From the IMG/VR virus record IMGVR_UViG_3300028835_000475: a stretch of DNA of 19,855 bases, one strand, 5' to 3'. A program made the translations under genes and the position numbers. The DNA comes from a virus. The notes under the pieces are model-generated. The model was not told the origin of the DNA. It saw only the letters and a list, made by a program, of their open reading frames with translations, and did no database searches. Below, one piece after another: positions 1,859 to 19,855 of this stretch (position 1 is the stretch's first letter; the number at the start of each line of letters is the position of its first letter).

Positions 1859-2990
1859 TCGAGATAAAACGGGTAAATATGCTGAGAATAAATATATACC
1901 ATCTCTATTAAAGATGGGTGCGGTTGATTATTCTAAGCCTGAGCATAGGGTAGCGAGACTTGATGAAGACCCAATTGCCGGCAATCTAGTTCTAAAGACC
2001 GCAGAATTGATTACAGCAAGACCTCCTATATTTCTTGATGAGAATGATAATGAACTCGATGAAACAAGGAATACATGGGAGGATAATCAATATAATAAGT
2101 TATTGAAGGAAGGTATTGAATCAACCCGAACACACGGTTATATTGTCTTAGAGCCTCTTAAAAAGCCTATAGATGATAGGGCCTGGATAATCCATGATTC
2201 ATCCGATATTCAAAAAATAAGATATAAGGACCTGAAAATAGAATCCTATACTATCTTGCCTAAACTTGAGGGGGGAATTGAGACTTCAATTGTCAGTGCA
2301 CCAGTTACAAGGGAATTATCACCTGAAGAAATTATTCATTATTATGTCGGTAGATATGATAGATCACTACAAGGATTGGGGATTATAAGAAGATGTTGGC
2401 ATGCTTTAGTTAGATTTACAGAAATATTTGAGTCTATGGCCATGTATGATTCAAGGATAGGAAATGGGATCTTATTAATTATTGTAGATCCAGAGCAATA
2501 TACTGCAGAATTAAATTCATTACATACCGCTGTGCGAAACCTTAACAATCGTAGGTATATGATTCTAAAGACCAGTGCAGAAGGGAACCCCCCAGACATG
2601 AAGTTCTTAGGCTCTACTGCTCCAATTGATTTCTCTACAGATTTAGAGACTTGCCTAAAGATTATTGCCGGTGCGAGTGGTTTTCCAGTTAGGTATCTTA
2701 TTGGAGATCCTAAGGGTGCCCTAAGTGCCGCAGGAGAGGATACAATTGCAGTATGGGAGAATCTTAAATCTATATTTGGAGAGTATAAAGATTTTATTAG
2801 AAAAGTTATTTCTTGGCAAGAAGATGGAGAAGCCTTAAATGAAAAGATTGCCAAGATTGAATTTGACGATGGCGGGCACCTTCCCGAAGCGGGAGAATTG
2901 CCCAAATCAGAAGAAGAGGGGGATGAATTAGACTCCCTTACTCCTATTGATATTATTAGACAACAAAAACAATTAAGAGGGATAAAATAA
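1845..2990 (+). CDS. Putative portal protein (381 aa)
   Basis: Canonical position between terminase and scaffold/capsid genes, suitable size, acidic C-terminus. No motif-level confirmation is possible by eye. Confidence 0.6.
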   Translation: MGFLNRDKTGKYAENKYIPSLLKMGAVDYSKPEHRVARLDEDPIAGNLVLKTAELITARPPIFLDENDNELDETRNTWEDNQYNKLLKEGIESTRTHGYIVLEPLKKPIDDRAWIIHDSSDIQKIRYKDLKIESYTILPKLEGGIETSIVSAPVTRELSPEEIIHYYVGRYDRSLQGLGIIRRCWHALVRFTEIFESMAMYDSRIGNGILLIIVDPEQYTAELNSLHTAVRNLNNRRYMILKTSAEGNPPDMKFLGSTAPIDFSTDLETCLKIIAGASGFPVRYLIGDPKGALSAAGEDTIAVWENLKSIFGEYKDFIRKVISWQEDGEALNEKIAKIEFDDGGHLPEAGELPKSEEEGDELDSLTPIDIIRQQKQLRGIK

Positions 2991-2992
2991 GA

Positions 2993-3403
2993 ATGAGTGA
3001 AGATAAAATTGAGCCGGATAAGACCAAGCCAGAACCGCCACCTGAGGCGGAGAGGGATGATAAAGGCAAGTTCAAGAAGAAAGAACCGACACCTCCAGAG
3101 GAGCCCGAAAAGAAGGAGGAACCCGAAGTCCCTAAAGCCCCTAGTGATGAGGATTATAAAAAACAAATCGAAACTTTAAATAAAGAATTGACGGGATTAA
3201 GAAACTTTAAGGCAAATAGAATGAAGGAGATTGATGATTATGAGGCAAGACTAAAGGCACAGCGAACTAAAGAGGATCAGAAACTAAAGGGGTTTAAAGA
3301 AGAAAAGAAATCCGAAGGCGATCAAACTGTAATCCCGCCATTATATAAAAAAATGTCTTTTGGAAATCTAACAGAAACATCTAAAAAAATGAGGAAAAAA
3401 TAA
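2993..3403 (+). CDS. Putative scaffolding protein (136 aa)
   Basis: Lies between portal and capsid genes. Pro/Glu/Lys-rich disordered N-terminus followed by a charged coiled-coil-like segment (IETLNKELTGLRNFKANRMKEIDDYEARLKAQR). Confidence 0.55.
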   Translation: MSEDKIEPDKTKPEPPPEAERDDKGKFKKKEPTPPEEPEKKEEPEVPKAPSDEDYKKQIETLNKELTGLRNFKANRMKEIDDYEARLKAQRTKEDQKLKGFKEEKKSEGDQTVIPPLYKKMSFGNLTETSKKMRKK

Positions 3404-4321: not shown

Positions 4322-5269
4322 ATGGTAGAAATTAAAGGTGTAACAGAAAGAGAATGGAAAGGGATCGATAAACAAGTAGCTCAATTAATGCGGGAGCCTA
4401 TTGTATATCAAAATCTTCCAAGTGGTATGCAAGTAGGCAAGGGTAAAAACAAAGCAGAGTATTATCAAGCAACCGATGTCTTTTATGTAAATGAGGGTAA
4501 AAGATTTGCGTATGAAGATAGAAATGTCGGATCAAGAAAAGTAAGGGATAATGCAATTACTTATTTAACACTACCAATTCATATTGATGAGAAGGATATT
4601 GATGCCACAAGTGGTGAGGGTATCACTCCTCTATTAGTCACACATGAGATTGAATGTAGAGCTAAGATGCAAGAGAGAATCCAACACATTATCCTTCATG
4701 GAAGTGATCATTCTGGTGGTCGTGGTATCTGTACTTTTCAACAAGATGAGGAAGATGCCTATGAATTTGATGCTACTTTAACATGGACGACTACTGGTCA
4801 ATTTAGTTTAGAAGTAGACATAGCAAGAGGTCTTTTAAGAGCAGCCCATATAATGCCCCCATATAAATTATGGATGACTCCAGGTATTCAGCCAGAATTA
4901 AGAGGACTCTTCAATGCAGTAAGCGGAGCTTCTGATTGGAAAACCCTTTTAATGGATTGGATGAATTTTGGTGTAGTTACTGGTGAGAAAGGAGCAGAAC
5001 CATTTATTCCGACAATTGATCAGATTGTAGAAACCGATGCACTTTATGACGGAACTTTATCCACTTCGGAACAAGCCTTTCTATTATGGAAGGATGATGT
5101 TAATTGTAATTATGTGGCAGAAGCCTATCCTATCCACAGAGCAAATATTCCAAATAAACCATTTGAAGGTGATATCGATTATGCACTTCGATGGGCGGGA
5201 TGTTTCATTCCTAAAAATCCTAAGGGTGCAGTCTGTGTCGGCTCAGGTGATACAACTACAGCATACTAA
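4322..5269 (+). CDS. Major capsid protein, HK97-fold type (315 aa)
   Basis: Position after scaffold and decoration genes, SD GAGGTAATCATC before the ATG, and a strong terminator after it. The N-terminal TEREWKGIDKQVAQLMREPIVYQNL resembles the encapsulin/HK97-family N-terminal pattern, from memory only. Confidence 0.65.
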   Translation: MVEIKGVTEREWKGIDKQVAQLMREPIVYQNLPSGMQVGKGKNKAEYYQATDVFYVNEGKRFAYEDRNVGSRKVRDNAITYLTLPIHIDEKDIDATSGEGITPLLVTHEIECRAKMQERIQHIILHGSDHSGGRGICTFQQDEEDAYEFDATLTWTTTGQFSLEVDIARGLLRAAHIMPPYKLWMTPGIQPELRGLFNAVSGASDWKTLLMDWMNFGVVTGEKGAEPFIPTIDQIVETDALYDGTLSTSEQAFLLWKDDVNCNYVAEAYPIHRANIPNKPFEGDIDYALRWAGCFIPKNPKGAVCVGSGDTTTAY

Positions 5270-5282
5270 GAGTACTAATTAA

Positions 5283-5316
5283 ATAGTGGTTTGAGAGCCA
5301 CTATAAATTTTTTTTT
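5283..5316 (+). terminator. Hairpin plus T9 terminator after the capsid gene
   Basis: 7-bp stem atagtgg (5283-5289) / ccactat (5298-5304), 8-nt loop, then aaa and ttttttttt (5308-5316). Confidence 0.7.
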
Positions 5317-5372: not shown

Positions 5373-5834
5373 ATGACAAATAGATCAGATTTAGATAAAT
5401 GTTGTGCCCAAATTGAACTTGTGAAACAATTACTTGGACCTGAGACTTTTAATCTTGATAAAATATTAATAGAACTTGAAACCAAGAAAAAACTTTTAAT
5501 GACATTTAAACCAAGAAGTTATCATAATATCCTTGAAGATTTAGAATCTGGTGCAATTATACATCCTGGAGATTGGGTAAAAGAACCTGAGGCGACTGAA
5601 TCACCAGAAGAGATTAAGAAACTTTTAGAGACAAGACAGGCTAAAGCTGAAGAAATACGATTAGCAAAAGAGGTTCCAGAAGAACCTAAGATTACCGCAA
5701 AAGCCAAGAAAGAAATCGAAGAGAAAGCACTAGCAGAGAAGGAACTTCAAGATGCAAAAGACAAATTAGCAGAATTAGAAGCCTTAAAAGAGTTGGAGAA
5801 AGAAGAGGTACCTATAGAAGAAAAAGGTGAGTAG
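5373..5834 (+). CDS. Hypothetical Glu/Lys-rich coiled-coil protein (153 aa)
   Basis: SD GTGAT plus an A-run before the ATG. The C-terminal half is heptad-like and charged (AKAEEIRLAKE...LAELEALKELEKEE). Confidence 0.6.
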   Translation: MTNRSDLDKCCAQIELVKQLLGPETFNLDKILIELETKKKLLMTFKPRSYHNILEDLESGAIIHPGDWVKEPEATESPEEIKKLLETRQAKAEEIRLAKEVPEEPKITAKAKKEIEEKALAEKELQDAKDKLAELEALKELEKEEVPIEEKGE

Positions 5835-6226
5835 TTATAGCATCAGGTGGCTATGGGCATGAGACAACTTGGGAGAGCATTTGGAAGATAGAGGCTTCTG
5901 AGGTAGATTCTACTAGGTTTGGGCATATAAATGCCTATATAGGAGAGCAATTTAATTTCTATATTACAGGTGATGGTGGGACTGATATTACAGATACAAA
6001 AATCACAGGTATGTTAAAATCTCAAACTCATGCTCTTATATTCGAATTATATCTTACCTCGAAAGCGGGTAAGTTTCATTCATGGGATAATATATTTATC
6101 CACTTATTACAAATTGATTTTAAAGATCGTTATTTTAACTTAATTAAACAAGCTAGAGAAATCTTATCCGGAAATTTAAGAGTTATATCCGGAGAGTGGG
6201 AATCAAAAAAATTCGATTATGGGTGA
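5834..6226 (+). CDS. Hypothetical structural protein (~130 aa) with a probable non-canonical start (GTT 5834 or ATA 5837)
   Basis: The frame is open from 5831, but the first ATG/GTG/TTG is at 6011. SD GGTGA at 5826-5830 sits 3-6 nt before GTT/ATA. The 60 upstream codons look coding (VIASGGYGHETTWESIWKIEASEVDSTRFGHINAYIGEQFNFYITGDGGTDITDTKITG). Confidence 0.5.
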   Translation, partial: VIASGGYGHETTWESIWKIEASEVDSTRFGHINAYIGEQFNFYITGDGGTDITDTKITGMLKSQTHALIFELYLTSKAGKFHSWDNIFIHLLQIDFKDRYFNLIKQAREILSGNLRVISGEWESKKFDYG

Positions 6227-6230
6227 TTGA

Positions 6231-7238
6231 ATGGTTAATGACTTCTATACTGCCGATAAAGCTCATTTGCTTAAAGCCCTTAAGATGGCTACTTGGAGAC
6301 ATACTAATGCTAAACTACAAGCAGCGGAAGTCCAAGGCATAGACGAATATATAGCCGGAAGGTTATTTGAACCTATAGGCTTAACAGCCCCTTTAGCTAC
6401 GGGAGCAAGTTATTTACCAAAATTTAAAACTACCCAATATTTACCAGGTACTTGGGACGAATATTTATATTTCCAAACAGCTATGAATTTATATCCCGCA
6501 ATGGGAATATGCTCTACTACAGAAGCAACTCCGAATATTCATGATATAACTTTAAGAACTGGTCAAACCCCTACTAATCAAGGAAGACATTGGGAGAGGG
6601 AGAATCCCGTTAGTGCAGAAAGTGAAAGAATTGATATACTTGGAATGATGTTGAATTCATTGCATATTGAATGTTCAGAAGCATCCCAAATCGCAGTTCA
6701 GCATAATAAATGGGGTTGTTCTTATACCAAAAATACTGGTACTGATGATATTGCTGCTGCCACACTAACGGATAGACCTTTTAGATGGGAAGATTTCGCA
6801 TTTCCCACATTCACATACAATGGTGAGACGATAGAAGCCACTATTATAGGCTGGGCTTATGATGTAGTGAATACATTATATTTTACGGGATTAGATACAA
6901 CTAAGCGTTATTCTATAGGAAAGATTATTCCTTTAACTTATATAGTAACTACTCTCGAGACTACACCATTTGGCCATAATGTATATGAGTTAATAAGAAC
7001 CGATCTTGAAGATTATCTTACTGATGTAGATTTGGTAGTTAAAACCTCACGTAATACCACTACAGATTATGTTCAATGGACTCATGATAAAGTTTATTGC
7101 CAACCATTCGTTATTACTGCCGAGAAGGCTCCTGGGAGGGTGGAGAAATATTTACTTGTATTGAGTCAATTGAGTACGGGATCTATTGCTATTCAGGCAA
7201 AGGATCAATATAATAATAATTATTACGAGAATCCCTAG
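6231..7238 (+). CDS. Putative tail structural protein, possibly tail tube or adaptor (335 aa)
   Basis: SD GGGTGATTGA before the ATG and a position downstream of the head genes. No diagnostic motif. Confidence 0.4.
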   Translation: MVNDFYTADKAHLLKALKMATWRHTNAKLQAAEVQGIDEYIAGRLFEPIGLTAPLATGASYLPKFKTTQYLPGTWDEYLYFQTAMNLYPAMGICSTTEATPNIHDITLRTGQTPTNQGRHWERENPVSAESERIDILGMMLNSLHIECSEASQIAVQHNKWGCSYTKNTGTDDIAAATLTDRPFRWEDFAFPTFTYNGETIEATIIGWAYDVVNTLYFTGLDTTKRYSIGKIIPLTYIVTTLETTPFGHNVYELIRTDLEDYLTDVDLVVKTSRNTTTDYVQWTHDKVYCQPFVITAEKAPGRVEKYLLVLSQLSTGSIAIQAKDQYNNNYYENP

Positions 7239-19404: not shown

Positions 19405-19855
19405 ATGGCTAGAAAATCTTTTACACCCCTCATAAAGACCACACTAGAAACATTTCCAAACCTTAAGGACAATTACAAGAAATTAGCTGAAAAGGTTGGA
19501 TGTTGTGTTAAAACAATAAAAAGATATTTTAAGAGTTTAGAATTAAAAGTCCAATTGGACAATCAAGGTAATCTTTTTAGCCAGGAGGGAGGTTCAGTCT
19601 CTCCTTCCTCCATTACTAATCAAGACATTTCTAATATTATAGAACTTCCCGATCAGCAAGCTCTTCTATTAGATAAGTCAATTTCCCCTAAATTATTAAA
19701 TATGGTTGGGCTAATAGAAACTAATCTTAATCGGATACTACAACAAGGCACTAATGATGCTAGGATACTTAATACCGCAATCTCATTCTCAGATAAAACA
19801 AGTAAATTTATAGTAAAAGAGGAATCAGAAAATAAGGGTTTTGTAGATTATCTAA
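19405..19855 (+). CDS. terL: Terminase large subunit, N-terminal portion with HTH domain (continues at base 1 through the terminal repeat)
   Basis: ATG at 19405, open to the contig end, and in frame with 3..1304 through the 144-bp overlap, giving 536 aa in total. HTH-like NYKKLAEKVGCCVKTIKRYFKSL. Confidence 0.8.
   Translation, partial: MARKSFTPLIKTTLETFPNLKDNYKKLAEKVGCCVKTIKRYFKSLELKVQLDNQGNLFSQEGGSVSPSSITNQDISNIIELPDQQALLLDKSISPKLLNMVGLIETNLNRILQQGTNDARILNTAISFSDKTSKFIVKEESENKGFVDYL
19712..19855. repeat. Right copy of the exact 144-bp terminal direct repeat
   Basis: Identical to 1-144 when read base by base. Confidence 0.95.

Follow-up and report, generated by a model that had tools for sequence, protein, structure and literature searches.

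Initiation at codons other than AUG, GUG and UUG has been studied in several cellular systems. In E. coli, the near-cognate codons AUA, AUC, AUU and CUG give measurable initiation at 1-2% of the AUG level (10.1101/063800), and in S. aureus AUA starts placed behind strong, extended Shine-Dalgarno (SD) sequences have been shown experimentally to reach 10-30% of AUG, the rare starts of that species being AUA in infC, ccpN and citZ and AUU in cvfC1 (PMC13009471). For archaea, review articles on initiation list no start codons besides AUG, GUG and UUG (PMC7531240); ribosome profiling of Haloferax found about 30% of novel start sites to be near-cognate, which were set aside in that work, and the Asgard tubulin gene atubA likely starts with ATT (PMC13394414). 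Translational coupling of archaeal genes over overlaps or very short distances has also been documented (PMC6728339, PMC10666635). The published verdandivirus annotation leaves the gene studied here unannotated (10.1101/2021.07.29.453957), and neither of two papers naming verdandiviruses, that study (main text) being one of them, mentions start codons.

Here we describe one gene of a viral DNA of 19,855 nucleotides (IMG/VR record IMGVR_UViG_3300028835_000475), the whole of which we call the window. A near-cognate start codon is a known kind of feature, and an Asgard-archaeal virus is an unusual setting for it. An earlier note on this DNA had drawn attention to a coding-looking frame with a strong SD and no canonical start codon at its 5' end, and had pointed to GTT 5834 as the possible start. 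The comparisons reported below make it highly probable that initiation would occur instead at the near-cognate codon ATA 5837, directed by the SD six bases upstream.

Genome, gene neighbourhood and predicted host

The window is a complete, verdandivirus-like genome, terminally redundant or circularly assembled: its ends overlap exactly over 144 bp (1-144 = 19712-19855), which leaves 19,711 unique bases at 34% GC, and a TerL and a portal-like protein are recognisable in it. A CRISPR spacer match points to Lokiarchaeia as the host. The protospacer, at 1379-1410 in the small gene just after terL, matches spacer_16 of 10H_NODE_88689 at 30 of 32 positions, and the array of that spacer, which shares its exact repeat with an Asgard MAG, has been assigned to Lokiarchaeia (10.1101/2021.07.29.453957, Table S4). 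Each of the other two VerdaV1 spacers, of three in all, differs from the window at six positions; the window is therefore a relative of VerdaV1 and not VerdaV1 itself.

The gene order fits the one listed for VerdaV2, VerdaV3 and VerdaV4, namely MCP, two unannotated genes, major tail protein and tape measure (10.1101/2021.07.29.453957, Table S5), the corresponding genes of the window being the one at 4322-5269 (MCP), a 153-aa gene, the target gene, a 335-aa gene and a 256-aa gene. The target is the second of the two genes between the presumed MCP and the presumed tail tube, both of which were identified by gene order against Table S5 alone, no search having named either; the AF2 model of the 335-aa protein has a pLDDT of 32. 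Directly after the stop of the capsid gene, a 9-bp hairpin is followed by a T-run of about ten bases (5283-5313), and a 60-nt AT-rich spacer separates them from position 5373. This element probably acts as a terminator or attenuator between the abundant transcript of the capsid gene and the genes for neck and tail.

A weak fold hint and the gene position together suggest a probable role of the target product as a head-tail adaptor or neck protein, present in few copies. In VIA-align comparisons its AF2 model reached Z scores of 5.8 with the Douge and Bxb1 connector chains, 5.5 with the SaPI1 neck and 4.7 with the Mu neck, all below the level that is meaningful for helical proteins; these chains are similar in length to the target and were among the best VIA-align matches. 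Foldseek against PDB and BFVD gave no match below E = 1, and the search of the ESM Atlas gave no match. Likewise, Pfam and PHROGs had no match for the target protein or any of 37 family members, a sequence-profile search of the PDB returned only noise, and blastn and tblastn searches of the GenBank phage collection found no match. In siphovirus necks, the head-tail adaptor is typically present in about 12 copies per virion.

The junction and the coding stretch before Met59

Table 1. Features around the start of the target gene in the window.
Feature	Coordinates	Strand	Remarks
Upstream gene	5373..5834	+	153 aa; Glu/Lys-rich, coiled-coil-like C-terminal half; stop TAG 5832-5834
Shine-Dalgarno-like AGGTGA	5825..5830	+	six bases 5' of ATA 5837
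TAG stop of upstream gene	5832..5834	+	two bases 5' of the proposed start; geometry expected for termination-reinitiation coupling
Proposed start codon ATA, near-cognate of ATG	5837..5839	+	aligned with ATG, ATA or CTG in homologues
Full target CDS (proposed)	5837..6226	+	129 residues + TGA; product predicted all-alpha
First canonical start ATG (Met59), internal Met	6011..6013	+	kept as M in 'TGML'; gene calls start here, giving 71 aa
Downstream gene	6231..7238	+	335 aa; own GGGTGAT SD and ATG; major tail protein by synteny with published verdandivirus annotation

The junction reads ...GAA AAA GGT GAG TAG TT ATA GCA TCA GGT GGC TAT GGG... (Table 1). The target frame is closed on its 5' side by TGA 5828-5830 and runs through GTA 5831, GTT 5834, ATA 5837 and GCA 5840 to the TGA at 6224-6226, and translation from 5834 gives the peptide VIASGGYGHETTWESIWK. 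The earlier note had described a frame open from 5831 to 6226, with its earliest ATG, GTG or TTG at 6011 and an ATA at 5837, and we found all of these in place. It had also placed a GGTGA (5826-5830) inside the end of the upstream gene, at the spacing used by other genes. This was borne out too: the last codons of the upstream gene contain the SD of the target gene, which extends to AGGTGA from 5825, and its distance of 6 nt to ATA compares with 4-6 nt before the ATGs of other late genes. GGTGA(T) is the SD motif of these genes, GGTGAT being found 4-6 nt before the ATGs at 6231, 7247, 8577 and 11584; no SD precedes ATG 6011. ATG is the start codon of all 15 other late genes and of 17 of the 21 early genes of this genome.

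The earlier note had further regarded the codons before 6011 as protein-like, and codon usage, substitution pattern and full-length homology agree that the 58 codons counted from ATA are real coding sequence. A stretch of 58 codons free of in-frame ATG, GTG and TTG has a probability of about 0.16 at the in-frame frequency of this genome (3.2%) and is not rare alone; it is the coding signal and the homology of the stretch, not its length, that are beyond chance. Scored by codon usage, positions 5837-6010 reach +0.62 bits per codon in frame, compared with -0.77 and -1.01 off frame, and windows of known genes in the same genome score 0.56 +/- 0.15. In comparison with a closely related copy (L002, see below), the N-terminal 58 codons have a dN/dS of 0.31 and the remaining codons one of 0.34. 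Furthermore, 11 of the 22 invariant columns of an 11-sequence alignment lie before Met59 (I35, G36, F39, N40, F41, Y42, I43, D46, T49, D50 and T57), and residues 25-44 make up the first long helix in the AF2 model of the target protein (pLDDT 74). A word-index search returned five homologues, three of them with 129-132 aa and aligned over the whole frame, and an HMM search of 1.8 billion representatives returned 30 family members, the full-length ones beginning with M-A-x-x-G-Y.

An all-against-all search for genes of this type found homology upstream of the first canonical start only in the target gene, the remaining flags being antisense shadows or edge effects. The presence of the feature in only one of about 37 genes points to gene-specific tolerance or low-dosage selection and not to a general viral habit.

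Start codons across related loci and the family tree

Table 2. Start region of the target gene in the window and five related loci.
Locus	SD region	Spacer	Aligned start	Next codon	Remarks
Window	AGGTGA	gtagtt	ATA	GCA	
L002	AGGTGA	gtagtt	ATA	GCA	
L001	AGGTGA	gtaatc	ATA	GCA	
L003	AGGTGATC	tag	CTG	GCA	CTG directly after in-frame TAG
L004	GAGTGA	gtaa	ATG	GCT	
L005	...	gcatt	ATG	GCT	

Start codons were compared between the window and five related loci for which DNA is available (L001-L005; Table 2). L002, a Ga0114925 contig from another metagenome, carries a 92%-identical copy and has 86% nucleotide identity overall, and L001 is an IMG/VR locus with a target protein 45% identical to that of the window. 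The codon aligned with the N-terminal Met of the family is ATA in three of the six loci, CTG in one and ATG in two, and an Ala codon (GCN) follows it directly in all six. The M-A-x-x-G-Y of the homologues sits over I-A-S-G-G-Y of the window, that is, over ATA-GCA, and L001, L002 and L003 likewise have no canonical start between the upstream in-frame stop and the conserved N-terminal sequence. These alignments speak for the non-canonical or reinitiation-type initiation of a longer protein that the earlier note had suggested. Where it had asked which codon homologous genomes carry at the start site, the answer is ATG (L004, L005), ATA or CTG at the equivalent of 5837, and full-length homologues start over ATA-GCA and not at the Met equivalent to 6011. 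A start at that Met was one outcome it had set against its own reading; neither this nor the other, reads with GTG at 5834, was seen.

A perfect SD of 6-8 nt (AGGTGA or AGGTGATC) is located 5-6 nt upstream of the aligned codon in all four loci with a non-canonical start, whereas it is weaker or absent in the two ATG loci, L004 and L005; with so few loci, this pairing of strong SDs with non-canonical starts and of weaker SDs with ATG is suggestive only. Wherever the upstream ORF ends at the junction, the SD lies inside the upstream gene, with the stop of the latter 0-5 nt from the downstream start. In L001 a homologue of the upstream gene ends likewise in ...GGT GAG TAA.

The neighbourhoods of the gene differ among these loci. 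In L003, a very basic ORF of 40 aa (MAKKGYNWDKALKRH..., 5873-5995) stands between the upstream gene and the CTG-started gene, and its TGA stop lies inside the AGGTGATC SD. In L001, two small ORFs of 57 and 70 aa (6318-6703) without counterpart in the window separate the target gene from a 348-aa tail gene. These genomes are also strongly mosaic: TerL is 90% identical between the window and L001 and the target gene only 45%, and in comparisons of the window with L003-L005 the capsid gene reaches 15-20% identity and the target gene 44-56%. In addition, a 274-codon ORF antisense to the portal gene (2342-3166, minus strand) is open in L001 as well (74% identity); most likely the ORF only shadows the conserved gene on the other strand and is not a gene of its own.

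In the maximum-likelihood tree of the family, the window belongs to a clade of six sequences (SH-aLRT 99) that has no canonically started member and includes sequences down to 60% identical to the window. The nearest relatives of the window, on three further contigs, have gene calls shortened to 99, 71 and 99 aa. At least seven switches between canonical and non-canonical starts are required on the tree; DNA sequence verifies three of the seven, in the clades of the window and of L001 and in L003, and four come from shortened gene calls that begin at an internal M, some of which are possibly contig-edge fragments. The homologues with shortened calls, represented here by their protein sequences, are P0003, P0006, P0010, P0013, P0019, P0020 and P0029. 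By this reconstruction, the start codon of the gene appears to have changed repeatedly in related viruses, alternating between ATG and two codons one base away from it, ATA and CTG. In four other members (P0021, P0022, P0028 and P0035), the gene call begins at 'MTEAD/MDEA/MTYE', six residues into the M-A-x-x-G-Y-M-T-E N-terminus that is usual in the family; these may be further non-canonical starts at which the gene finder took the next Met.

These starts have consequences for annotation. Roughly a fifth of the cluster representatives of the family have gene calls cut to 71-100 residues, and the shortened calls lose IG..FNFYI..D..TD, the most conserved motif of the family. For the window, public gene calls cut the target protein almost in half, and the ESM Atlas holds only the 71-aa version.

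Proposed initiation at ATA 5837, alternative readings and known systems

We infer that the target gene is intact and expressed, with AUA as its initiation codon. In the proposed mechanism, the AGGTGA SD would position the small ribosomal subunit of the host six bases 5' of the AUA, and the initiator Met-tRNA would pair with AUA with a mismatch at the third position, yielding a product of 129 residues with the N-terminus M-A-S-G-G-Y; CUG would likewise be read by the initiator tRNA with a single mismatch. Ribosomes ending the upstream gene at TAG 5832-5834 would halt two bases before the AUA and, because this stop is so close, termination-reinitiation probably supplies part of the initiation. 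An AUA start is expected to be weak, with a protein yield below that of AUG, and low output of this kind would be fitting if each virion requires few copies of the protein.

Several other explanations of the junction were weighed against this one. That only the 71-residue protein from ATG 6011 is made, with the upstream 58 codons untranslated, agrees with the choice of gene finders, with the version held in the ESM Atlas, with the conservation of Met59 and with ATG 6011 being the sole canonical start of the frame. We nevertheless regard it as very improbable, since this ATG lacks an SD, the stretch before it contains half of the invariant residues and the first long helix, codon usage and dN/dS there equal those of the remaining gene, and the ATG-bearing relatives start at the position of ATA 5837. 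To initiation at GTT 5834, through the TAGTT overlap, or at GTA 5831, we give the same very low probability: both codons are in the open frame after the SD and 1-nt stop/start overlaps are common in this genome, but each differs from ATG at two positions, their spacing from GGTGA would be 0-3 nt against the 4-6 nt of other genes, and neither is conserved. Since the position of GTT is taken by ATC in L001 and by a stop in L003, and the Met of the homologues aligns with ATA, the proposal of GTT as the start gives way to ATA 5837. The changes from ATG to ATA or CTG are single-base changes of the inactivating kind, and it might be asked whether these genomes have lost the start codon and carry an inactive or decaying gene. 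This is very unlikely, if marginally less so than the two preceding readings. All four loci without a canonical start keep an intact ORF of about 130 codons, the state is common to the clade of the window with its members down to 60% identity, dN/dS is 0.31, the target gene is 44-56% identical where the capsid gene of the same genomes is 15-20% identical, and both the window and L001 represent complete genomes that carry terminal repeats. The start-codon mutation considered in the earlier note stands only as an evolutionary change from ATG to ATA, one kept through the whole clade.

More improbable still is that the ORF forms a C-terminal extension of the upstream protein, reached by programmed frameshifting or hopping as in the gpG/gpGT tail chaperones. 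In the window, L002 and L001 the ORF does lie in frame -1 relative to the upstream gene, it has no canonical start of its own, and an A-run (GAAAAAGG) is located 5' of the junction in the window. However, TGA 5828-5830 closes the -1 frame, so that ribosomes slipping on the A-run would terminate one codon later; L002 does not have the A-run (GAAGAAGG), and no tRNA can re-pair at GAG-TAG. Moreover, z-scores for junction folding (+0.17 to +1.7 in three non-canonical loci and -0.35 in the ATG locus L004) give no structure beyond shuffled controls, and the relation of the frames is not kept, being in frame in L004, with an unrelated upstream gene in L005 and only the short 40-aa ORF upstream in L003; the ATG-bearing relatives show that the gene stands alone. 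As for a sequencing or assembly error, a single-base difference from ATG would suffice to produce the ATA, yet L002, a contig from another metagenome with 86% nucleotide identity overall, has exactly the same junction GGTGAGTAGTTATAGCATCA, and ATA is found again in L001, a third assembly. The same ATA in independent assemblies excludes the base-call error that had been suggested, and we give an error of this type practically no weight. An alternative genetic code was rejected, as TGA, TAG and TAA all terminate genes in the window, and no virus-encoded tRNA was found in the window.

Initiation at ATA 5837 would also have implications for the host. The same gene appears to have been switched repeatedly among ATG, ATA and CTG, and therefore the host, Lokiarchaeia by the spacer match, evidently tolerates AUA and CUG starts, as far as can be judged from the virus data. 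A wider proposal would be that Lokiarchaeial ribosomes routinely accept AUA and CUG, and that verdandiviruses swapped the ATG of one neck gene at least three and perhaps seven times as a stable dial keeping a low-copy virion protein scarce; we put this forward tentatively, as possible and somewhat less than probable. If true, the gene would provide an evolutionarily replicated natural experiment on start-codon stringency in Asgard archaea, whose Lokiarchaeial ribosomes are among the closest prokaryotic relatives of the eukaryotic machinery. The alternation of ATG, ATA and CTG in a gene whose protein remains under selection is comparative evidence for near-cognate initiation in an Asgard host and bears on how stringency evolved toward eukaryotes. 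In addition, the SD followed by ATA, CTG or ATG in its natural context could serve as a compact test construct for archaeal initiation assays in vitro or in vivo.

Compared with the verdandiviruses, which are Caudoviricetes of Asgard archaea, the window has a similar size of about 20 kb, terminal redundancy, a spacer match and the same order of TerL, portal, three genes, MCP, two unannotated genes, tail tube, tape measure and adhesin, and a close relative comes from the same JGI metagenome as VerdaV5. The gpG/gpGT frameshift offers a poorer parallel, given that the window has no slippery heptamer in an open -1 frame, no conserved frame relation and no stimulatory RNA structure. Archaeal termination-reinitiation shares with this locus an upstream stop 0-5 nt from the start and an SD located within the preceding gene; start codons in the published cases are canonical, whereas the codons here would be AUA and CUG. 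The atubA gene likewise belongs to an Asgard lineage and its rare start was found from upstream sequence and RBS spacing, but it is cellular and stands as one isolated case with ATT, while ATA and CTG are seen here in several independent lineages with evidence at the DNA level. Lastly, the bacterial AUA and AUU starts resemble the present case in having a codon one base from ATG, a well-placed SD, a lowered expected yield and conservation across relatives. They differ in that the host here would be an Asgard archaeon with initiation of the aIF1/aIF2 type in place of IF3, and in that the gene, known from its sequence alone, is a viral structural gene in which ATG, ATA and CTG alternate within one family.
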